Part shown: in pieces, positions 11,635-57,939 of the stretch
Position numbering within the stretch: the first letter of the stretch is position 1
Layout: each line of letters begins with the position of its first letter
DNA from: Longimicrobiales bacterium
GTDB taxonomy: Bacteria > Gemmatimonadota > Gemmatimonadetes > Longimicrobiales > Gaopeijiaceae
Assembly: GCA_965218295.1 (NCBI GenBank)
Contig: CBDCKN010000013.1
Span: 160,001-224,000, forward strand
DNA: 64,000 bases
Reading direction: 5' to 3'
Notes under the pieces: generated by a model
Seen by the model: the letters and a program-made list of their open reading frames with translations, nothing else
Databases searched by the model: none
What the model was told of the DNA's origin: nothing
Made by a program: the position numbers and the translations under genes

Positions 11635-11773
11635 CGCCCAGCGTCCATGATGTGCCGTTGCCGTTGGGGGGGTCAGAGGGGGCACAGCCCCCCGCCAGCC
11701 CCTGCCGGGGACCCGCGAAGCGTGGCCCCAAAGGGTAGGCTGGCTTGACCACCTTAGAGTGGCTCAAGCCAGC
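11635..11773 (-). repeat. oriT-like element copy A with hairpin
   Basis: Reverse complement nearly identical to 53431-53535; IR arms GCTGGCT/AGCCAGC 21 nt apart. Confidence 0.7.
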
Positions 11774-16791: not shown

Positions 16792-18612
16792 ATGATTTGG
16801 GACGGCGCGACGGGGAGCGGTATGAACTGGCGGCTCGCCCTCTCGGAGCTCGAGGCGGAGCGCTCTCACCTGCGGCTCGACGGCGAGCCCGTGATCCTCT
16901 ACTCGCTCCTCTCTCCGCCCGGCCAAGCCTACGCGAACCTGCTCCGGGAGCTCTACTGCCTGGACGCGGTGATGACCATGTCGCTCGAGTGGCGGCCCTG
17001 GGCGATGGAAGCGGCCCGGCGCCGGATCCGTGGCGCGCAGCGGCACTACTTCTCCAGGCGCTACTCGATGATGGCGCACGTGCAGGAGACGGAGGGCACC
17101 GCCGCCGCGATGGTCGACTCGGCCGCGGCGACCGAGTCCGACCGGCTAGGCGAGGCGCTGGTCGAGCTCGAAGCCGACGGCGTGAGCTACGGGGAGGCCA
17201 CGCTCACCGTGGCGCTCCACGGCGAGCTTGGAAGCATCGAACGCGTGGACGGCGACCTGCGTCGGCTGTTCGCCGCGCACGACGCGAAGGTGATCCGGGA
17301 GGGCTACGGCCAGCTGCCGGCCTGGTTCTCGCGGCTGCCGGCCCAGCCCCGTGGGCGGCAGGCGCGGAAGGTGTTCGTGTCGGCCGGAGTGGCCGCGTGC
17401 CTGGCGCCGCTCTTCGGGCCGCCCAAGGGCCGGGCTAAGAGCAAACACCTTGGCCGCGAGTCGCTCGCGGTCTTGGAGACCCCGTGGCGCACGGCGTACC
17501 ACTACGACCTGTTCGCCGGTGATGTCGGCCACACGCTGATGCTCGGCGCGACCGGCTCGGGCAAGAGCTTCACGCTCAACTTCCTCCTGGTCGAGGCGCT
17601 CAGGTACGACCCGCGCGTCCTGATTCTGGATCTGGGCGGCTCGTACCGCTGGCTGACCCGGTTTCTGGGAGGCCGCTACCTGGAGCTGTCGCCCGGCGAG
17701 GCGGAGCCGACGCTCCGGTTGCAGCCGTTCGCCCTCCCGGCGGGCACGCGGACGTTCCAGTTCCTGACCGGCTGGGTGCTCCGGCTCCTGAAGCTCGGCG
17801 GCTGGGAAGCGAGCGGGGCGGATACGAGCGAGATCCGCTCGCGCATCGAGGACCTGTATGCGTTCGAGCCGGAGCGGCGGACGCTGAGCGTCCTGGCTGG
17901 GTCGCTTCCGTCCGCGACGTGGCCGGCGTGGAGCCGCTGGACCCAAGGCGGTGCCTGGGGCGGCTACTTCGATAACCCGGTCGTCGGAGCGCCAGATCTC
18001 GAGTTCGCCGACTGGCAGGTGATCGATCTGGCCGGGGCGGTCGAGCATCCGGATCTCTGCGACGCGGCACTCTCCTACCTGCTCGAGCGGATGCGCTTGG
18101 AGGTGGAGGACCCGTCCGAGGCGGCGCGGCTGAAGCTGATGGTCGTGGACGAAGCCTGGCGCTACCTGCAGGACCCCGCCGTGCTGAATTACCTGGCCGA
18201 GGCGGCGAAGACGTGGAGGAAGAAGAACGCCGCGTTGATCCTCGCCACGCAGTCCGCGGTGGACGTCACGGCCACGCCCGGCGCGGCGGCGCTCCTCGAG
18301 TCGATCCCGACGAAGCTCTTCCTCGCGAACCCGGAGCTCCCTGACGAGGTCGGCGCGCTGTTCCGGCTGAACGAGTCGGAGCTGGCCCAGGTCCGGGGCC
18401 TGATCCCCAAACGCGAGCTCTATCTGCGCCGCCCGGACGGGGCGGCGGTGCTACGGCTCGAGGTCGATCCGGAGAGCTACTGGCTCTACACCTCGTCCGC
18501 ATTGGACGCCGAGGAGAGGGCCCGGGCCGTCGAGCGTCACGGGCTCGCCCGGGCCCTCGAGGTTCTCGCGAGCCGAGACGATCCCACCCCCACCCCCAAC
18601 GCAAGGAGCTGA
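16792..18612 (+). CDS. virB4: VirB4-type T4SS ATPase, N-terminally truncated
   Basis: GHTLMLGATGSGKS, VVDEAW, WRKKNA..ILATQS; begins at an AT-rich junction. Confidence 0.85.
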   Translation: MIWDGATGSGMNWRLALSELEAERSHLRLDGEPVILYSLLSPPGQAYANLLRELYCLDAVMTMSLEWRPWAMEAARRRIRGAQRHYFSRRYSMMAHVQETEGTAAAMVDSAAATESDRLGEALVELEADGVSYGEATLTVALHGELGSIERVDGDLRRLFAAHDAKVIREGYGQLPAWFSRLPAQPRGRQARKVFVSAGVAACLAPLFGPPKGRAKSKHLGRESLAVLETPWRTAYHYDLFAGDVGHTLMLGATGSGKSFTLNFLLVEALRYDPRVLILDLGGSYRWLTRFLGGRYLELSPGEAEPTLRLQPFALPAGTRTFQFLTGWVLRLLKLGGWEASGADTSEIRSRIEDLYAFEPERRTLSVLAGSLPSATWPAWSRWTQGGAWGGYFDNPVVGAPDLEFADWQVIDLAGAVEHPDLCDAALSYLLERMRLEVEDPSEAARLKLMVVDEAWRYLQDPAVLNYLAEAAKTWRKKNAALILATQSAVDVTATPGAAALLESIPTKLFLANPELPDEVGALFRLNESELAQVRGLIPKRELYLRRPDGAAVLRLEVDPESYWLYTSSALDAEERARAVERHGLARALEVLASRDDPTPTPNARS

Positions 18613-18618
18613 CACGCC

Positions 18619-19485
18619 ATGCGACCACCAATGACACCCCTCGTTCTAACCGCCCTTCTCTTGGCTGCCCTCCCGGCCGGGGCCGCCGCGCAGCAGGAGG
18701 ACGACCAAGCGTTCCTCCGGGTGCCGGTCCCGGAGGAGGGCGAGGACCGGATCCACCGGCTCCGCACCCGGGTCCGCCACACGACGGTGATCGTGCTCCC
18801 CGCCGATGAGAACATCCTGGACTTCGTCGTCGGCGACTCGGAGTACTGGCACCTGACGGGCGCCGCGAACGTCGCGTTCCTGAAGCCTCTCTCCCCGGAC
18901 GCGGCGACGAATATCGCGCTCGTCTGCGAGTCAGGGCGGATCTACTCGTTCCTGGTGGCCGAGCACAGCGACGGGCCACCCCATCTGGTCGTCCGCGTAG
19001 AGTCCGGAGCAGAGGCGGCGCGGCTCTCCGGCGGCGGCAGCGGCCGTCCCGCGTTCGTCGCGCGTAGCGAGGTCGCGGCCTACCAACAGATGGCCGCCGA
19101 GGCGGCCGAGGCGGCTCGCAGCGCCCGGGAGGCAGCGGAGGCCGGCATCCTGGAAGCCCGGACTCAGGCCGAAACGGAGATCGAGGAGTTCCGTGCGTGC
19201 TATCCGGAGCGTCTCGCCTTCGAGTACCGGCTCGACGGGGACGCGGCCGACCGGCCGTTCCTCGTCGAGGCGATGTGGCACGACGGGCAGTTCACCTATC
19301 TGAGGTCCCACGCACAGGAGTCGCCGGCGCTCTATGAGCTCCGGGACGGGGAACCGGCACTCGTGGCCTACGATCTGACGGATGACGGGCTTTACGTCGC
19401 CCGCCACGTACTGGCCGACGGGTGGCTGCAGATCGGCGACAAGCGGGCCAGCTGGCGGTTCACGCCGCGGGAAGCGCTCCGATGA
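18619..19485 (+). CDS. virB9: VirB9/TrbG-type T4SS protein
   Basis: Signal peptide, VGDSEYW..FLKP..TNI, WHDGQFTY motifs. Confidence 0.8.
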   Translation: MRPPMTPLVLTALLLAALPAGAAAQQEDDQAFLRVPVPEEGEDRIHRLRTRVRHTTVIVLPADENILDFVVGDSEYWHLTGAANVAFLKPLSPDAATNIALVCESGRIYSFLVAEHSDGPPHLVVRVESGAEAARLSGGGSGRPAFVARSEVAAYQQMAAEAAEAARSAREAAEAGILEARTQAETEIEEFRACYPERLAFEYRLDGDAADRPFLVEAMWHDGQFTYLRSHAQESPALYELRDGEPALVAYDLTDDGLYVARHVLADGWLQIGDKRASWRFTPREALR

Positions 19486-20756
19486 GCCGCTGGAAGCAGT
19501 GGGTCCGGCCCCCGGAAGGCGCGCTGCCGGGCGGCATCGTGACAAAGGCCGGCGTGGTGTTGATCGCGGTGCTCGTCGGTGGACTCCTCTTCTCGTGGGC
19601 GATGACGGGTTCCGAGGAAGCCGACGCTCCCGGGGCGCTGCCCGAGGCGCAGGCGGTCGACGACGGGATGGGGAGGTCGCTCCAGAACCGCATCCGCCAA
19701 GAGGCCGAGCGGCAGACTCTGGAGGCCGCCGCCCGGGCGCGCGCCGAGCTCGAGCGCCGGCAGGCCGCGGCCGCCGAAGAGATGGCCCGGCTCCAGACCG
19801 AGTCGGAGACGCCGAACACCGCAGCCTTGATCCCAGGCGTGAGCGCGGCCGAGTCGGAGCTTCGGGAGGCGCTTCGGCTGGAGGAGCTGGAGCGGAGAAC
19901 CCGCTCGCTCCGCGCCCTGCCGGTCGCCCATTCGTACCGGGCTCCCAACACGGCCGCGGAGTCGTCCGAAGCCGGCACCGGCGATGCGGCCGACGCGGAC
20001 GTGGCCCTCCTCGAGAACACGGTCCAAGCGGCTCTCGCCTCCTTCGAGCAGTCGGTCGGGGCGCTCGAGGGGGAGCTGGCGGCAGAGCAGCTTCTCCTCG
20101 GGTCCCCGGGCATCGCTGCTGCTGCGGCGCCCGCGTCCGGGCAGCAAGCCTCCCGTCCGGCACCGAGCCCGATTCAGCCAGGGCGTAGCGTCCGGCCCGC
20201 CGACCCGCCGGGCTGGGAGCGGATCTACGAGGGCTCGTTCCTCGAAGGGGTGCTCCTCACGCAGCTCACGGGCGATTTCCCGGGACCGGTGCTCGCGACC
20301 GTCTCGGTGCCGTTCTATTCGGCCGATCGCCAGCGGGTCCTGATTCCGCGCGGCGCACGCGTCGTCGGAACGGCTCGGGCCGTTCAGGACCCGGACCAGA
20401 GCCGGCTCGCAGTCGCGTTTCACCGGTTGCTGCTGCCCGACGGGAGCTGGATCGACCTCGAGTTCACGGGCCTGAACCAGGCGGGCGAGGGCGCGCTTCA
20501 GGACCAGGTCGATCGCCACTACTTCAGCACGTTCGCTGCCGCCGGAGCCGTCGGTGTCGTAAGCGGACTCGCCCTGGCCGGCGGTTCGCCGTTCGGCCTC
20601 AGGGCGGGCGTCGGCCAGGGACTCGGCCAGAGCGCGACCTCGACTCTCGACCGGTTCCTGAACCGGCTACCCACCCTCACGATCCGCGCCGGCCATCGCC
20701 TGCGCATCTGGTTCACCTCCGATGTCCTGGTCCCCAGGGCCGGGACACGGCAATAA
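19482..20756 (+). CDS. virB10: VirB10/TrbI-type T4SS protein
   Basis: LIPRGARVVG, G..GALQDQVDRH, PTLTIRAG; ATGA overlap with virB9. Confidence 0.85.
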   Translation: MSRWKQWVRPPEGALPGGIVTKAGVVLIAVLVGGLLFSWAMTGSEEADAPGALPEAQAVDDGMGRSLQNRIRQEAERQTLEAAARARAELERRQAAAAEEMARLQTESETPNTAALIPGVSAAESELREALRLEELERRTRSLRALPVAHSYRAPNTAAESSEAGTGDAADADVALLENTVQAALASFEQSVGALEGELAAEQLLLGSPGIAAAAAPASGQQASRPAPSPIQPGRSVRPADPPGWERIYEGSFLEGVLLTQLTGDFPGPVLATVSVPFYSADRQRVLIPRGARVVGTARAVQDPDQSRLAVAFHRLLLPDGSWIDLEFTGLNQAGEGALQDQVDRHYFSTFAAAGAVGVVSGLALAGGSPFGLRAGVGQGLGQSATSTLDRFLNRLPTLTIRAGHRLRIWFTSDVLVPRAGTRQ

Positions 20757-20773
20757 CAACAAAGGAGCTCATC

Positions 20774-21682
20774 ATGCGTCACCGCAGCCTCACCACCGTC
20801 CTCTTGGTCTCCATCCTGATGCTCGCGAGCGCTGGGCCGGCCAACGCCCTCTTCGACATCGGCGGCGTGATCCAGCGGGCCCAGATGATCGTGAACCAGG
20901 CGACCCAGATCGCGAACCAGATCCGCCAGATGCGGACGATGACCCGCCAACTCACCGAGCTCGAGGAGCAGCTCGACTACATGAAAGAGGCCGCGCGGGG
21001 CGAGGTGGACGCTTTGATCGAACCGTTCACCGAGCTGGCGGCCGGATCCATCGGCCTCGTCGGCGACGACCTCGACTGGGGCTCCGAGTTCACCGGAGCG
21101 GCCGGCGAGCTGGTCGAAGCGGTGCGGGGCATGGGGAGCGGCGACTCGTTCACCGACGTCTGGCGGAGCGCGCAGGGCGTGGCCGACCAGGTGAGCGAGG
21201 CGGACATCTTGGGGCTGTTCCGTAACCGCCCGGCCGAGGTGTCGTCGCGCGCGGTTGAGGACTACCGCCAGGCCCGAGAGACCGCCGACCGCCAGCGCGT
21301 GCTCGACTACGCGATGATGGACGCCGCGGCCTCGCTCGCCTCGACCGTCGAGAGCGCACAGGACTCGTTCGACGACCTGACCGCGAATGGGAATCTGTCG
21401 AACACGGCGCTCCAGCAGGCGCAAGTGGCTGCCGCGCTGACCCAGGGCCGGATCAACGCCGCCGTGGCGCAGGTGCTCGCCTATCAGGCCGTCGAGCAAG
21501 CGAACCGGATGCAGCAGGCCGAGATCGACCGGCTCGAGCGGCTCGCCGAGTGGAGGGACGCGCGCCTCCGTACGAACGCGATGGCCGATGCGATGCGCAC
21601 GGCCGCGTTCCAGAACCGCGACCGGCTCCGGGAGGGACTCCTGTTCAAGGTCCCGTCGTTCTACATGGGCGGCCAAGTTTAG
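20774..21682 (+). CDS. TrbJ/VirB5-like secreted protein
   Basis: Signal peptide, NQATQIANQIRQ coiled segment, position before virB6. Confidence 0.65.
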   Translation: MRHRSLTTVLLVSILMLASAGPANALFDIGGVIQRAQMIVNQATQIANQIRQMRTMTRQLTELEEQLDYMKEAARGEVDALIEPFTELAAGSIGLVGDDLDWGSEFTGAAGELVEAVRGMGSGDSFTDVWRSAQGVADQVSEADILGLFRNRPAEVSSRAVEDYRQARETADRQRVLDYAMMDAAASLASTVESAQDSFDDLTANGNLSNTALQQAQVAAALTQGRINAAVAQVLAYQAVEQANRMQQAEIDRLERLAEWRDARLRTNAMADAMRTAAFQNRDRLREGLLFKVPSFYMGGQV

Positions 21683-21700
21683 GCCCCGGGAGCGACCGCC

Positions 21701-22711
21701 ATGCAACTCCTGCCACCGCAGTCGATCGATCCGAACGTCCCGGCCCAGATCCCCGCCGACCAGCTCCAGGACTTCAAGGGGTTCCTGGACGTCGTGCTCG
21801 ACACCGTGGTAGGCGGCGCGGCGCCCGACGTGCTGACGCTCGGCCACCAGCTGTGGGGCGGCCTCGCGGCGATCGTCGTCGCCTGGAGCGGGCTCAAGAT
21901 CGCGTACAGCGGCACGCTCGAACCGTGGGCGCTCGTGCGTGTCGTGCTCGGGATCGCGATCCCCCGGACGCTGCTCCACTACTACAGCGTCCCGATCCCG
22001 GGCGTGGGCTTCACGTTTCCGGCCATGGTCGCGGCCGGAGGGATCTGGCTCCAGAACCTGTTCATCTCCGACGTCGTGTCCGTCGGCTACACGGAGATGA
22101 CCGCGCTCGTGCAGGCGTTCGCCGCACGGCTCGGCGCGGCATGGTCCGGCGGGAGCCTGATGACCCTCGTGACCGAGGGCGTGAGCGTGTTCTTCTCGTC
22201 CCTCGTCGCGCTGATGATGGGCGTGCCGCTCGTGCTCGGCTTGGTCGCGCTCTTCTGCCTGACCTACGCGCAGGTGATCTGGGCGCAGGTGGCGCTCGCG
22301 ATCGTGATCCTCTTGGGCCCGGTGTTCATCCCCTGGCTCCTCTTCGAGCCGCTCGCGTTCCTGTTCTGGGGATGGTTCCGCACGCTCATGGTCTACACGC
22401 TCTACGGCGTCGTGGCCGGAGCGATCCTCCGCGTGTTCATGGGCGTCGGCATGGGCTACGTCACGACCTATACCGGCGCCTTGATGGGCACCGGCTCCTC
22501 CGACCCGGCCGAGATCGGGCTCTGGGTCGTCGTCCTCCTCCCGCTCGTCGTCTCCGGCCTGATGGCCGGCATGAAGGTGGGCGAGCTCGCCGCGATGCTC
22601 GTCTCCGGGTCCGGATCCGTCGGATCGGGCATGATGGCGCTCGTGGTCCGCGGCGGCGGACGCCTCAGCGCTGCCGCGAACCCGGCCCGCCCCCCAATCC
22701 CCGGAGGCTGA
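21701..22711 (+). CDS. virB6: VirB6/TrbL-type membrane protein
   Basis: Polytopic, LGPVFIPW..F..W motif. Confidence 0.8.
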   Translation: MQLLPPQSIDPNVPAQIPADQLQDFKGFLDVVLDTVVGGAAPDVLTLGHQLWGGLAAIVVAWSGLKIAYSGTLEPWALVRVVLGIAIPRTLLHYYSVPIPGVGFTFPAMVAAGGIWLQNLFISDVVSVGYTEMTALVQAFAARLGAAWSGGSLMTLVTEGVSVFFSSLVALMMGVPLVLGLVALFCLTYAQVIWAQVALAIVILLGPVFIPWLLFEPLAFLFWGWFRTLMVYTLYGVVAGAILRVFMGVGMGYVTTYTGALMGTGSSDPAEIGLWVVVLLPLVVSGLMAGMKVGELAAMLVSGSGSVGSGMMALVVRGGGRLSAAANPARPPIPGG

Positions 22712-22722
22712 AGGAGACATCC

Positions 22723-23391
22723 ATGAACCGAGAACACGATGCCGGCCGCGAGTACGCGGAAATCTGGGGCGAGACCGTCGAGGCGAACCGGAAGCTCCGG
22801 ACGCTGGCGACCATCCTGGCCGCCACATGCCTCGCGCTCGGCGTGCTCCTCCTTCGTATCGCGACCGTCGAGCCGCCCAGGCCCATCGTCGTGCGGGTCG
22901 ACGAGGTCGGCCGCGCCGAGGCCGTGGCCTACGAGGCCGCAACGGCCCAGGCGGACCCGCTCGACCCCACGACCAAGTATTTCCTGAACCGGTTCATCTC
23001 CGACTTCTACTCCAGGCGCCAGGCGACGGTCGAGGAGCACTGGACCCGGAGCCTGCGGTTCCTCTCGACCGAGCTGGCGAACACCGCGTTCACGCGCGAC
23101 GGCGCCGAGGTCGCCGCCATGGCGGCCGGCACCGCCGACACCGAGATCCAGGTCGAGCAGGTCGTGCTCCGCATCCACCCCGCACCGGAGGCGCCGCACG
23201 GCGCGACCGCCGATTTCGACCTGGTCCACTTCAGGCAGGGGCAGGAGACCCTGAGGGAGCGGTGGTCGCTCACGCTCCGGTTCACCTTCCTCACCGTGAT
23301 CCCCTCCGAGCTCGTCGTCTACAACCCGATGGGCATCCTCATCACCTACCTCCAGGCCGACCGTGCCCTGGTCACGGAAGCCCCACGATGA
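22723..23391 (+). CDS. virB8: VirB8/TrbF-type protein
   Basis: TM, PIVVRVDEVG, NPMGILIT; AAGGAG RBS. Confidence 0.8.
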   Translation: MNREHDAGREYAEIWGETVEANRKLRTLATILAATCLALGVLLLRIATVEPPRPIVVRVDEVGRAEAVAYEAATAQADPLDPTTKYFLNRFISDFYSRRQATVEEHWTRSLRFLSTELANTAFTRDGAEVAAMAAGTADTEIQVEQVVLRIHPAPEAPHGATADFDLVHFRQGQETLRERWSLTLRFTFLTVIPSELVVYNPMGILITYLQADRALVTEAPR

Positions 23392-36905: not shown

Positions 36906-37067
36906 TCCTGCGTATGGGTTCCGATACGTTCCATAAACGTCCAATGAGAATCTATAACAAGAATAATGACAGTGATTTATAGAATATCCTAAGGGTTGCG
37001 AGGTCCCACTGCGTCCGCTAGATTCCCGTACATAACATACGATGTTTTATACGGGGACTACTACGAC

Positions 37068-38273
37068 GTGGATTTGCCCAAACACCGAGGTAGGCGCCCG
37101 CACAACGCACTCAGCGCGGCCTTCGTGCGCACTGCGAAACCCGGCTACTACTGTGACGGCAACGGCCTCTATCTGCGTGTGGACCGCTCCGGCGCGCGTC
37201 GATGGGAGCAGCGTCTGCGGATCCAGGGTCGAAACCGCACGCTGGGGCTGGGGGGCTGCCAGCTGGTATCGCTGGCCGAGGCGCGCGAGAAGGCGTTCAC
37301 GAACCGCAAGATTGCGCGCTCGGGCGGTGATCCGCGGACCGAGCGGCACAAGGTCCGGGACATACCCACGTTCGCCGAGGCGGCCGCCCGCGTTCTGGAA
37401 CAGAAGCGGCCCGGCTGGCGCAGCGGCAAGCATCCGGAGGACTGGATCTCCAGCCTGCGTGCCTATGCGTTCCCGGAACTCGGCCATCGGCCGGTCGGCG
37501 AGATAACGACAGCCGACATTCTGGCAGTTCTGACGCCGATCTGGCACGGCAAGCACGTGACCGCCCGACGGGTGCGCCAGCGCATCGGGGCGGTGATGAA
37601 GTGGGCGGTGGCGATGGGACTTCGACCGGACAACCCCGCCGGCGACGTGCTCGATCAAGCGCTTGGCCGGCATCGGGTTGTCGTCCGACACATGAGAGCA
37701 TTGCCTCACTCGGAGGTCGCGGGCGCGATCGAGGCGGTGCGGACTTCGGCGGCGAGCGTCGCGACCAGGCTCGCCTTCGAGTTCATGGTGCTGACGGCGT
37801 GCCGTTCCGGCGAGGTTCGCTTGGCGGGCTGGGATGAAATCGATCTCGAGGCGGGCGAGTGGACCATCCCCGGCGAGCGAATGAAGGCCCAGCGCCCGCA
37901 CAGGGTGCCGCTGTCCGGGCGCGCCGTGGAGATACTGGGCGAGGCGCGGACGCTCGGGGACGGCGGCGGTCTGGTCTTCCCGTCGTCGGAGGGCCGTCCA
38001 TTGTCCGGCAGCACCCTCTCCACCCTGCTTCGGGGACTGCGTATCGCGGCCGTGCCGCACGGCTTCCGGTCCAGCTTCAGGGATTGGTGCGGCGAGTGCT
38101 TCACCGCCCCCCGTGAAGTCGCCGAGGCCGCGTTGGCCCACGTGGTCCGCGACAAGGTGGAAGCGGCCTATGCGCGTTCGGACCTGTTCGAGCGCAGGCG
38201 CGTCCTGATGGACAATTGGGCTGCGTATCTGGCGGGCGAGCGTCTGGACCCGGAGGCCGAACCGGCTCGCTGA
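37068..38273 (+). CDS. P4-like tyrosine integrase
   Basis: DGNGLYL, CRSGE, HGFRSSFRDW, LAH, AAYARSD; start uncertain. Confidence 0.92.
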   Translation: MDLPKHRGRRPHNALSAAFVRTAKPGYYCDGNGLYLRVDRSGARRWEQRLRIQGRNRTLGLGGCQLVSLAEAREKAFTNRKIARSGGDPRTERHKVRDIPTFAEAAARVLEQKRPGWRSGKHPEDWISSLRAYAFPELGHRPVGEITTADILAVLTPIWHGKHVTARRVRQRIGAVMKWAVAMGLRPDNPAGDVLDQALGRHRVVVRHMRALPHSEVAGAIEAVRTSAASVATRLAFEFMVLTACRSGEVRLAGWDEIDLEAGEWTIPGERMKAQRPHRVPLSGRAVEILGEARTLGDGGGLVFPSSEGRPLSGSTLSTLLRGLRIAAVPHGFRSSFRDWCGECFTAPREVAEAALAHVVRDKVEAAYARSDLFERRRVLMDNWAAYLAGERLDPEAEPAR

Positions 38274-38351
38274 TCCGCCGCGCTCGCAGTGTCGGCGGAC
38301 GAGTCCGTCAGGCGCTGAAGAGCAGGGGCGCGAAGGCTGGCTCACGACCCG

Positions 38352-38643
38352 TATGTGGACGCCCCCCGGGTTGGCAAGCCTGACTTCGAACCGAGGTTGG
38401 TGGCAATCAGGTCCGGTACTGTCGTATGTCCGGCCTCTTGATGCAGCCCTCGTTGGCTGCGGGCCCGTATGGTGTTCGTGAGATCGGATCCAAATCGTTA
38501 GGTCGGGCTCGGTGGCCCTTCGGGTCATCCTGGTGTTTCCGATCCCGTCTTCCAGACCGTTTGCCCTTACTCGTTCTTGCGTCCTGCTGCCCACATCTCC
38601 CAGCAGCTTTCTCTGTTTGCGCTTCTCTCCTTTCATTGGCCGG
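38352..38643 (-). ncRNA. Putative bridge/seek RNA in the IS1111-type right end
   Basis: Guide segments match the target and donor junctions (see findings); exact RNA ends unknown. Confidence 0.7.
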
Positions 38644-39666
38644 TCAGGCGGCAGCGCGAACCCGATGGATCTCCTTCTTCGTGGTCAGCGCCCAGACCAT
38701 CCGCGCCGTCCTGTTGGCGAGCGCCACCGCGACCAGCATCTTCGGCTTGCGTGCCAGCATCCTGGCCAGCCACGGATCCGTGATCTCGCCGCGCCGGATC
38801 GCGTTTTGGACGACCGCCATGGCTCCCGTGATCAAGAGCCGCCGGAGATCGCGCTGGCCCATCTTCGATATCCTGCCCAGCCTCGGCTTGCCGCCGGTGG
38901 TGTGCTGCCGCGGCACAAGGCCGAGCCAGGCCGAGAAGTCGCGCCCGCGCCGGAAGCTCTCCATCGGCGGTGCGAAGGCCTGCAGTGCCATCGCGGTGAT
39001 CGGTCCGATTCCGGGGATTGTCATCAGCCGCGCCGTCTCTTCGCGCTCCCGTGCGCTCGCCCGGAGCTTCCTGTCGAATCCATCGATCTTCTCATCGAGC
39101 TCGTCGATCCGCCCGAGCAGCAGCCATCCCAGCTCGACGACCGCCTCCGGCAGGCCGACGTCCCCGTCTTCCAGCACCCAGGCCAGTTGCCCGATCCGGG
39201 CCCTGCCCTGCGGAGCAACAACTCCGAACTCGGCGAGGTGACCCCGAAGGGCATTGATCGTCTGTGTGCGCTGGCGCACCAGCAGGTCACGCGTGCGAAA
39301 GAGCATCCCCTGACCCTGCTGCGCTTCGGTCTTGACCGCCACGAAGCGCATGGTCGGACGCTGTGCGGCTTCCGAGATCGCCTCCGCGTCCGCCGCGTCG
39401 TTCTTCTGCCTCTTGACGAAGGGCTTCACGTAGATCGGGGGAACCAGCTTCACCTCGTGACCGAGGGCCACGATCTCCCGGCCCCAGTAGTGGGCGCCGG
39501 CGCATGCCTCCATCGCCACCGTGCAAGGCGGCTGCGCGGCGAGAAAACTCAGCAGCTTCCCGCGGCTCAGCTTCCTGCGGTACGCTACCGACCCGTTCGC
39601 CTTCGCCCCGTGTACCTGAAAGCTGCGCTTTGCCAGATCGATCCCGATGATGCTAACCTCCTCCAT
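38644..39666 (-). CDS. IS110 DEDD recombinase/transposase
   Basis: GIDLAK, MEAC, KNDAADA, GLVPRQHTTGG. Confidence 0.93.
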   Translation of the reverse strand: MEEVSIIGIDLAKRSFQVHGAKANGSVAYRRKLSRGKLLSFLAAQPPCTVAMEACAGAHYWGREIVALGHEVKLVPPIYVKPFVKRQKNDAADAEAISEAAQRPTMRFVAVKTEAQQGQGMLFRTRDLLVRQRTQTINALRGHLAEFGVVAPQGRARIGQLAWVLEDGDVGLPEAVVELGWLLLGRIDELDEKIDGFDRKLRASAREREETARLMTIPGIGPITAMALQAFAPPMESFRRGRDFSAWLGLVPRQHTTGGKPRLGRISKMGQRDLRRLLITGAMAVVQNAIRRGEITDPWLARMLARKPKMLVAVALANRTARMVWALTTKKEIHRVRAAA

Positions 39667-39754
39667 TGGATGCCTCCTCCCTCAGATGGTCGATATCGCT
39701 CAGTACCATCTTGGCACATTGCGATGCCGCCGGGAGGGGGCGTCCACCCCATCG

Positions 39755-39900
39755 TTAGCAGTCATGAGCCAGCCTACCCCTTGGGGCCACGCTTCGCGGG
39801 TCCCCGGCAGGGGCTGGCGAGGGGTGGCTCCGCTTCCCCTTCGAACCCCCAGCTTCCCGCGCCGCTGCCGGGGCAGCGGTCGCGCGGCCGGTGCGGCCCC
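39755..39900 (+). repeat. oriT-like element copy C (left arm at 38336-38349)
   Basis: GTCATGAGCCAGCCTACCCCTTGGGGCCACGCTTCGCGGGTCCCCGGCAGGGGCTGGCG shared with 53425. Confidence 0.75.
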
Positions 39901-52214: not shown

Positions 52215-53399
52215 ATGCGTAAACGACCCCTTACGGCCGCCTTCGTGGCGCGGGTGAAGACGCCGGGACGCTACGGCGACGGCGGGCTCGGCGGGCTCGG
52301 CCTGTACCTCCGCGTCCACCGGATGAAGTCCGGGCGCGTCTCCAAGTCCTGGGGCCAGCGCATTCGAGTGGCGGGGAAGCCCACCAACCTCGGACTGGGC
52401 TCGTACCCGGTCGTGACGCTCAGGGAGGCGAGGGAGAAGGCGCTGGAGTACAGGCGGGCAGTCCATTGGGGCCACGACCCGAGAGACGCGGGGGTTCCCA
52501 CCTTCGAGGCGGCCGTCGAGAATGTGATCGCGATCCACTCGCCGACCTGGAAGAACCCATCCCGCATGGCCGGGCAATGGCGGCAGACGCTGCGGGACTA
52601 CGCCGATCCGCGCATCGGCCGGAAACGCGTGAGCGAGATCGCGACGGCCGACGTGCTCGCCATCCTCAAGCCCATCTGGTCGAGCAAGCCCGCGACCGCG
52701 AGGGCCGTGCACCAGCGGATCGGCGCGGTGATGAAGTGGGCCGTCGCGAAGGGCTACCGGCCGGACAACCCGGCGGGGGACGCCATCGCCGCCGCACTGC
52801 CGCGCAACGGCAACGCCATCCGGCATCACAAGGCGCTCCCGCACGGCGAGGTGGCGGCGGCTCTGGCCGAGGTCCGCGACTCGGGGTCCCATGCCGGTGT
52901 CCGGCTGGCGCTCGAGTTCATGGTCCTGACGGCGACACGCTCGAACGAGGTCCGGGGCGCGACGTGGGACGAGTTCGATCACGATGTCTGGACCATTCCC
53001 GCCAGCCGCATGAAGGCGAAGCGCGAGCACCGGGTTCCCCTGTCGAGGCGGGCCTTGGAGATCCTTGAGGAAGCCCGGAAGCGCCACGACGAGGGCGGGA
53101 ACGTGTTCCGGGGCGCGAAGGGAGGGAGGATCAACGCCTCGATGTTCAGCGGCCTGCTCCGGCGTCTCGGCATCGGGGGAACGCCCCACGGGATGAGGTC
53201 CTCGTTCCGCGACTGGTGCTCGGAGACGGGCGTGGCGCGCGAGGTGGCCGAAGCGGCGCTGGCCCACGTCGTGAAGAACAAGGTCGAGGCCGCCTACGCC
53301 CGCTCGGACCTGCTGGACCGGAGGCGCGAGGTCATGGAGGCCTGGGCCGACTATCTCGCCAGCGAGCGTCGAGACACCAAGGCCGGACCGATCCGTTGA
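52215..53399 (+). CDS. P4-like tyrosine integrase
   Basis: PGRYGDG..GLYL, TRSNE, HGMRSSFRDW, LAH, AAYARSD. Confidence 0.92.
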   Translation: MRKRPLTAAFVARVKTPGRYGDGGLGGLGLYLRVHRMKSGRVSKSWGQRIRVAGKPTNLGLGSYPVVTLREAREKALEYRRAVHWGHDPRDAGVPTFEAAVENVIAIHSPTWKNPSRMAGQWRQTLRDYADPRIGRKRVSEIATADVLAILKPIWSSKPATARAVHQRIGAVMKWAVAKGYRPDNPAGDAIAAALPRNGNAIRHHKALPHGEVAAALAEVRDSGSHAGVRLALEFMVLTATRSNEVRGATWDEFDHDVWTIPASRMKAKREHRVPLSRRALEILEEARKRHDEGGNVFRGAKGGRINASMFSGLLRRLGIGGTPHGMRSSFRDWCSETGVAREVAEAALAHVVKNKVEAAYARSDLLDRRREVMEAWADYLASERRDTKAGPIR

Positions 53400-53402
53400 C
53401 GC

Positions 53403-53527
53403 GCTGGCTCATGACCCGTTACCTGTCATGAGCCAGCTTACCCTTTGGGGCCACGCTTCGCGGGTCCCCGGCAGGGGCTGGCGGGGGGCTGTGCCCCCTC
53501 TGACCCCCCCAACGGCAACGGCACATC
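53403..53527 (+). repeat. oriT-like element copy D with intact 13-bp hairpin
   Basis: GCTGGCTCATGAC-ccgttacct-GTCATGAGCCAGC followed by the shared ~100 bp. Confidence 0.75.
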
Positions 53528-53680
53528 ATGGGCGCTGGACGCGACGTGTGGGTGCAGATCCGCGCCAGCGAGGTGGAGCGCGCCGCGTGGCACGCCAAGG
53601 CACGCTCCGCAGGGTTGACGCTGTCGGATCTGGTGCGCCGGTCGGTTGGCCGGGGTAGCTGTGTTCTAGCGGGAACCTGA
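53528..53680 (+). pseudogene. MobC-like ribbon-helix-helix remnant
   Basis: RDVWVQIRASEVERAAWHAKARSAGLTLSDLVRRS. Confidence 0.6.

Positions 53681-56762: not shown

Positions 56763-57939
<1,177 letters not shown>

Follow-up and report, generated by a model that had tools for sequence, protein, structure and literature searches.

A predicted bridge RNA of an IS1111-group insertion sequence that may aim it at a hairpin of a ColE1-like transfer origin

In the window, which is the whole 64-kb stretch of genome G000 analysed here, an IS1111-group insertion sequence interrupts a hairpin located 14 bases from an inferred ColE1-like nick, on islands that carry tyrosine integrases. We consider it just probable that the predicted bridge RNA of the element aims it at this hairpin, a position from which the element would lead the transferred DNA once the origin is nicked. 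As read from their predicted guides, three IS1111 lineages address this one origin at three positions. Since the guide of the window element spells an oriT hairpin and two other lineages are found on the same origin, these elements are likely carried on mobile islands and may ride their transfer.

The element and its recombinase

The element is made of the following features:
38352-39754, minus strand: IS1111-group insertion sequence of 1401 bp, together with one CG core; the second core stands at 38350-38351
38644-39666, minus strand: DEDD bridge recombinase of 340 aa, with Pfam domains PF01548 and PF02371
38355-38366, no strand: right sub-terminal inverted repeat of 12 bp, 3 nt from the end
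39736-39747, no strand: left sub-terminal inverted repeat of 12 bp, 7 nt from the end with the core counted

The preliminary description of this DNA had recognized an IS1111-type bridge recombinase element, and this identification was confirmed by the presence of both IS110 domains, the DEDD residues (D10, E53, D90 and D93, as read from the sequence), the spacing of the repeats and the non-coding region downstream of the gene. The recombinase scored 324 bits with the NCBIfam IS110 model NF033542 (cut-off 140), and its nearest named relatives belong to Longimicrobiales (Gemmatimonadota) assemblies. The IS1111 group is defined, in the part of PMC11187229 available, by sub-terminal repeats of 11-13 bp placed at distances of 7 nt (left end) and 3 nt (right end). 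The spacings of 3 and 7 nt given previously hold, while the repeats measured 12 bp and not the 11 bp first described. The long non-coding region downstream of the gene contains two matches to the target, with that to the complement of the top strand coming first, which is also the order given for IS1111 seekRNAs in the same partial source. On this sequence evidence, the element is a complete IS1111-group insertion sequence with a predicted 3′ non-coding bridge/seek RNA.

When the recombinase was aligned to the IS621 and ISCro4 chains, Thr257 fell at the position of the serine in the "ESG" loop of IS621, and it is possible that this residue would act as the nucleophile in place of that serine. 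The loop itself reads HTTGG, without serine, and Thr occupies the position of the IS621 serine in 100 of 120 aligned relatives (51 with TT and 49 with ST).

A second copy of the element, identical in sequence and with the same near flanks, was found on another contig of the same genome (C14:112040-113446). No sigma-70-like promoter was detected in 38250-39850, a range that leaves the circle junction outside, and an Rfam scan of the 64-kb window returned two tRNAs and nothing else; contigs of the RNA run X20 contained 5% of the words and gave no sign of expression. No circle junction was seen in the sequencing runs either, all of which consist of contigs. An unrelated second IS110-family transposase is found in the window at 56763-57746.

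Guides of the predicted RNA

The elements of the predicted RNA are located as follows:
38480-38546, minus strand: predicted target-binding hairpin of the bridge/seek RNA, with a scaffold conserved in relatives
38521-38528, minus strand: target guide 1 (AUGACCCG), covarying with the flanks
38496-38501, minus strand: target guide 2 (CUAACG), covarying with the flanks
38423-38429, minus strand: donor guide for the right end plus core (ACAUACG), matching the element's own end
38469-38472, minus strand: likely donor guide for the left end (CCAU), from its conservation, with an inferred role

The segment 38395-38560 folds with a z score of -2.48, and the entire right end with one of -1.54. Both target guides were found where they had been proposed, within an internal loop closed by GGGC/GCCC. 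To relate guides and flanks, 80 relatives were gathered from genome contigs, and 30 further loci were taken from the top matches of a search over 301 genomes of the order. The covariation set consisted of 65 elements for which both ends and no less than 8 nt of flank were available, and these yielded 51 distinct guide pairs; ten loci had been excluded by hand (right end miscalled or flank missing) and two as query duplicate or tandem copy, further loci were dropped by script (no end, or flank too short) and five were added from guide searches.

Guide 1 matched its own flank at 5.08 of 6 positions, compared with 3.08 (maximum 3.57) in 10,000 shuffled pairings, and guide 2 at 4.49 of 5 positions, compared with 1.37 (maximum 1.96) in as many; these relatives are not independent, yet their guides differ among close relatives on an unchanged scaffold. 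At least five of the six positions of guide 1 matched in 39 of the 51 pairs, and at least four of the five positions of guide 2 in 46. Tabulating the flanks of homologues was the check that the preliminary description had itself suggested, and the guides proved to follow the landing sites beyond the shuffled expectation over the 51 pairs. We therefore regard the predicted target guides as real, since they track each element's own flanks across relatives.

The donor guides match the joined ends of the element, as in IS621-type systems. The right-end guide, retained from the earlier proposal, matched the element's own end at all seven positions in 49 of the 51 cases and at six of seven in the remaining two. 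The second donor guide, initially placed at 38451-38456, was rejected: its sequence does not track the donor and falls in a hairpin loop that is hypervariable. It was replaced by the CCAU at 38469-38472, which matches the left end and is conserved in 55 of the 56 distinct segments.

Judging from the covariation and from the work on IS621 and ISEc11, it is very probable that the RNA is made, binds the recombinase and guides recombination between circle and target at the CG core. Specifically, the RNA encoded at the right end would load the recombinase, and the element would leave as a circle whose junction would be read by the donor guides. At the CG in the hairpin loop, the target loop would pair with the two target strands, and recombination with the joined ends of the circle would follow. 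As the predicted bridge RNA spells the loop of the hairpin, it likely steers the element there.

The interrupted hairpin and its empty counterparts

The occupied and empty sites in the window, with the integrases next to them, are these:
36996-38273, plus strand: Arm-type (P4-like) tyrosine integrase of the occupied island (Pfam)
38336-38351, no strand: left arm of the interrupted target hairpin, followed by the CG core (read from the sequence)
39753-39773, no strand: core and loop of the target hairpin followed by its right arm, which ends in the nick-like motif AGCCAG (39767-39772)
52215-53399, plus strand: Arm-type tyrosine integrase (Pfam), ending just before the empty hairpin
53403-53437, no strand: empty target hairpin, with the core CG at 53417-53418 and the nick-like motif at 53431-53436

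Deletion of 38352-39754 in silico was recomputed and, as had been reported, restores a 35-bp hairpin with CG at both junctions. An empty target had also been announced at 53403-53437; it is indeed present and is matched exactly by guide 1, whereas the match to guide 2 fails at one base (TTAC instead of TTAG). An empty site equal to the occupied one over the whole hairpin was located elsewhere in the genome (C3, about 555580-555610), and the empty joint (38349 to 39753) appeared in contigs of three of four sequencing runs. Contigs of runs X2 and X7, both from one study, contained the occupied junction behind the end of another integrase. The 12-nt address is not unique, given that eight genomic sites match it with one mismatch (four oriT hairpins and four sites outside origins), compared with seven in a reversed-genome control. 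The two copies in G000 share 184 identical bp upstream and 68 bp downstream, within a 2.8-kb region that is 94.7% alike, and because of these shared flanks they may derive from one insertion event.

Three empty hairpins of the genome (C13:236791, C3:266624 and C9:179417) have GG or CC instead of CG as the core and would be poor targets; this change may represent escape or plain variation.

The target block as a transfer origin

Two blocks that resemble a transfer origin adjoin the hairpins described above:
39767-39879, plus strand: oriT-like block of the ColE1/MOBP5 type (HMM match), followed by no intact mobC or relaxase over 1.8 kb
53431-53660, plus strand: oriT-like block and the 5′ part of mobC (start at 53528), with no relaxase within 1.8 kb

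An HMM built from 19 of the genome's own sites found 23 such blocks in the genome. An intact mobC-relaxase pair, as the position of a MOBP5 oriT implies, stands behind eight of them, and the other 15 lack intact mob genes; neither of the two hairpin copies in the window has such a pair. Two further oriT-like blocks of the window, at 11745 (C13:171745) and 34526, are also devoid of mob genes behind.

AGCCAG is taken here to be the nick motif of ColE1, with the bottom strand being cut. It is located 97-141 nt upstream of all nine mobC starts listed and 403 nt upstream of ColE1 mbeC, and it is oriented alike in the ColE1 record (L114); in three of four related plasmids it is found 101-136 nt upstream of mobC, and the fourth has a one-base variant. 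Pfam identified NikA-like/MobC and Relaxase domains in the one mob set tested. The island relaxase is 30% identical to the ColE1 relaxase frame over 285 positions (E 8e-24), although it reads AHVHV, with histidines, where the ColE1 frame reads LELNF; HEN motif III, typical of MOBHEN relaxases, is absent from this alignment and a histidine-type motif appears instead. The enzyme would work like MbeA, though it is no HEN member. The ColE1 MOBP5 region, as far as it is covered in NC_001371, PMC9282650 and PMC12857230, also resembles the island mob region in having mobC and an overlapping relaxase with an inner frame, and the islands differ from it in being chromosomal, in their Arm-type integrases, in the histidine relaxase and in the shorter distance from the motif to mobC.

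The predicted nick, placed from the ColE1 position, would fall on the bottom strand between 39768 and 39769, so that the core would lie 14 nt from it on the leading side. The conservation of the leading-side hairpin concerns its shape more than its sequence, with 14 of 26 distinct sites folding at a z score below -2. Its stem varies, and of the 26 distinct sites of G000 and relatives, 21 have a TA 11 nt ahead of the nick-like motif. Pairing of this motif is possible with the hairpin or, alternatively, with the mob-side repeat.

The association with oriT had already been proposed in the preliminary description, and the position and orientation of the motif relative to mobC and mbeC, together with the similarity of the relaxases, speak for it; it is further reinforced by the two additional lineages aimed at the same origin. 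It is highly likely that the target block is an oriT, either functional or decayed.

Lineages at the origin

The guide of the window element was found in three copies, which belong to two genera and to two of the 260 genomes of the family that are at least 85% complete, and all three occupy one hairpin position, 14 nt from the predicted nick. One of them, in genome G336, is 95.6% identical over the aligned region and has different flanks together with a perfect 12-nt match. Neither viral nor metagenome contigs matched the pattern of this guide.

A second lineage, whose best segments are 81-88% identical, carries guides that spell the nick motif itself. Its 13 copies were found in eight of 314 genomes; nine of these sites match the oriT HMM from the junction on, two contain the motif only and two lie elsewhere. 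One extra copy was detected among 80 metagenome loci (L153), and one copy of the lineage, L138, sits before an intact mobC-relaxase pair. The oriT HMM matched none of the insertion sites of 27 relatives with other guides, and the nick-junction pattern was absent from viral contigs. The window and second lineages stand apart in a tree of 33 recombinase genes built from DNA, and an AU test rejects a single clade (p 0.02), a separation that recombination between elements could blur.

The third lineage, about 62% identical, was recovered through eight matches to a junction pattern taken from reads, in seven of the 260 genomes. Six of these are complete elements with one guide, whose sequence corresponds to the mob-side arm at 8 nt from the predicted nick, and three of the six lie in a full oriT block; the remaining two matches are an element with a non-matching guide and a bare end. 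The guide sequence lies outside the junction pattern, and these copies, being selected by junction, do not test specificity. At the position used by this lineage, two origins (C3:551468 in G000 and L258) contain a short stub resembling an IS1111 right end, likely a deletion scar in both cases.

In the closest sister lineage (92-95% identity) the guide differs by a few bases, and none of the four copies is found at an origin. Because this lineage aims elsewhere, the guide of the window lineage could have reached the hairpin by drift. The notion that the sister guide, first noticed as a variant in reads, is aimed at the GG-core variant of the hairpin was discarded, as its four copies (three in G338 and one in G455) lie at matching sites that are not oriTs; the search returned five other matches without a visible recombinase. 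The site of this guide is near-identical in two genomes (L249 and L251), and in L251 it has an integrase on one side and the end of a relaxase gene on the other, which suggests that this site, too, may be island DNA. The idea that most sister guides are aimed at the ends of other insertion sequences was also abandoned, with transposase-type domains being found at two and tyrosine integrases at three of 21 loci (96 flanking frames).

Transfer and alternative explanations

Because the predicted bottom-strand nick falls between 39768 and 39769, an insertion of the window lineage would leave the nick motif and the mob-side repeat whole and would enter the recipient first, with its left end leading; the mob genes are transferred last. 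Since most occupied origins lack a relaxase of their own, transfer would need the relaxase of a sister island and a helper channel in trans. A candidate for the latter is found in the window:
16792-23391, plus strand: VirB-type mating-pair cluster, extending to 25421 with a weak VirD4-like frame, located after tRNA-Met and upp

This cluster, which comprises a VirB4 without its N-terminal part plus B9, B10, B6 and B8, is possibly a relic helper. A longer one, with VirB2, B3, B4, B9, B10, B6 and B8, lies on contig C15 (about 498000-506300). An initial impression that the genome had no secretion system, based on blanks for PF03135 and PF02534, was overturned when direct scans of reading frames found these clusters. 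Neither VirB11 nor an intact coupling protein was recognized in the two VirB clusters of this genome, which is 90.7% complete.

The original suggestion that the element hitchhikes on conjugation meets several objections. No intact mobC or relaxase follows the origin at the window copy, and intact mob genes are kept at one of 12 occupied origins compared with eight of 21 unoccupied ones in G000 (Fisher p 0.11), in a count that leaves the third lineage out and takes occupied origins from several genomes and unoccupied ones from one. Furthermore, the window element splits a structurally conserved hairpin that may be needed for the origin, and the missing VirB11 and coupling protein also count against the proposal. 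The second lineage, in turn, cuts the nick motif, and the third its mob-side inverted repeat. Even so, we lean slightly towards the view that the element would gain spread by transfer.

The same facts can be accommodated without any role for transfer, if the block were targeted as an abundant, conserved non-coding hairpin repeat that offers a safe harbour, as REP sequences do for ISPa11 and ISPpu10. The number of blocks in the genome, most of them without intact mob genes, the lack of such genes at 11 of 12 occupied origins and the different insertion positions of the lineages are consistent with this explanation, as is the finding that integration of ISPpu10 is raised by the target stem-loop itself (10.64898/2026.03.19.712850, in the part available). 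However, orphan copies of the origin were brought by mobile islands and, therefore, landing on them is still landing on island DNA; besides, the nick-motif copy L138 precedes an intact mobC-relaxase pair, and the same stretch of about 30 bp was chosen by three lineages. We judge this explanation somewhat unlikely. A separate explanation, landing-pad parasitism that disables transfer, holds that each incoming island is a fresh landing site, that the origin is broken by the insertion and that the island, thereby stranded, goes on to decay. It would agree with the replacement of bases around the predicted nick by the second lineage, with the splitting of the mob-side repeat by the third and of the leading hairpin by that of the window, and with the decay of mob genes at most occupied origins. 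It is an improbable reading, in view of the lack of significance of the deficit in intact mob genes, obtained by comparing several genomes with one, and of the fact that the window lineage leaves the nick motif whole.

It could finally be argued that targeting is real and that the label of oriT is wrong, the block being another cis element of the mob operon, such as an operator or promoter for MobC. The nick position, which is predicted from that of ColE1, and the limited identity of the relaxases, with AHVHV in place of LELNF, would allow for this. Against it, the motif, its orientation and its location on the mobC side are as in ColE1 and related plasmids, with an inverted repeat following, and oriTs are described as intergenic, close to the relaxase and flanked by hairpins in the portion of 10.1101/2024.01.30.577996 available, which makes this alternative very improbable.

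The reading that takes the block as a transfer origin can be extended further, tentatively and with more doubt than conviction: reprogramming of IS1111 bridge RNAs against one ColE1-like origin may have occurred three times or more, and the nick-sparing site of the window lineage may export it first, even from a stranded origin nicked in trans, thus making the element a mobilisable transposon without transfer genes of its own.

Relation to known systems

IS4321 and IS5075 are reportedly IS1111 elements aimed at the repeats of Tn21, and an IS1111-attC group is said to be aimed at attC sites. Judging from titles only, both resemble the window element in that they are aimed at cis-acting sites of other mobile elements, and they differ from it in that its site belongs to conjugative DNA processing and is used by three lineages at three positions. 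The hairpin described here lacks the attC core consensus as judged by eye, and the neighboring integrases have Arm-binding domains.

ISEc11, ISKpn4, ISPst6 and ISPa11, as presented in the available part of PMC11187229, share with the window element the 7- and 3-nt extensions, the downstream non-coding region and the order of target matches, and with its family the natural reprogramming among close relatives. Their targets are, in contrast, a short linear site, attC sites or REP sequences, and the term "oriT" does not occur in the main text of that work. Similarly, IS621 and the predicted IS1111 bridge RNAs treated in the accessible part of PMC11208160 have a DEDD recombinase, a target loop followed by a donor loop and a 2-nt core, and the placement of donor guides in a multi-loop, noted there for IS1111 bridge RNAs, is found here as well. 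The window element is unlike IS621 in its right-end RNA, its CG core, the Thr at the position of the loop serine and its transfer-origin target. ISPpu10 also has one half of its target in the stem of a DNA hairpin, although it is an IS110-group element that targets REP sequences (10.64898/2026.03.19.712850, from the part available).

In the part of 10.64898/2026.08.14.744561 at hand, oriT appears as captured cargo only. No IS110 or IS1111 element targeting oriT was found in the available portions of the literature, including PMC11187229 and PMC11208160 with supplements, 10.64898/2026.08.14.744561, 10.64898/2026.03.19.712850 and PMC3832669; subscription papers, ISfinder entries and preprint supplements could contain one. 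The mechanism, that of a seek/bridge RNA, is already known, and what would be new is the class of target, a transfer origin.

Implications

With this element, transfer origins would join the list of sites of RNA-guided insertion sequences. The three lineages constitute a natural trio of guide programmes on one 30-bp origin, located beside, inside and behind the predicted nick, and this set of three positions would provide a clean test of riding on conjugation versus switching conjugation off. They also supply compact CG-core recombinases with many natural guide swaps. Finally, these results suggest that IS1111 guides could serve to locate unannotated oriTs in uncultured bacteria.
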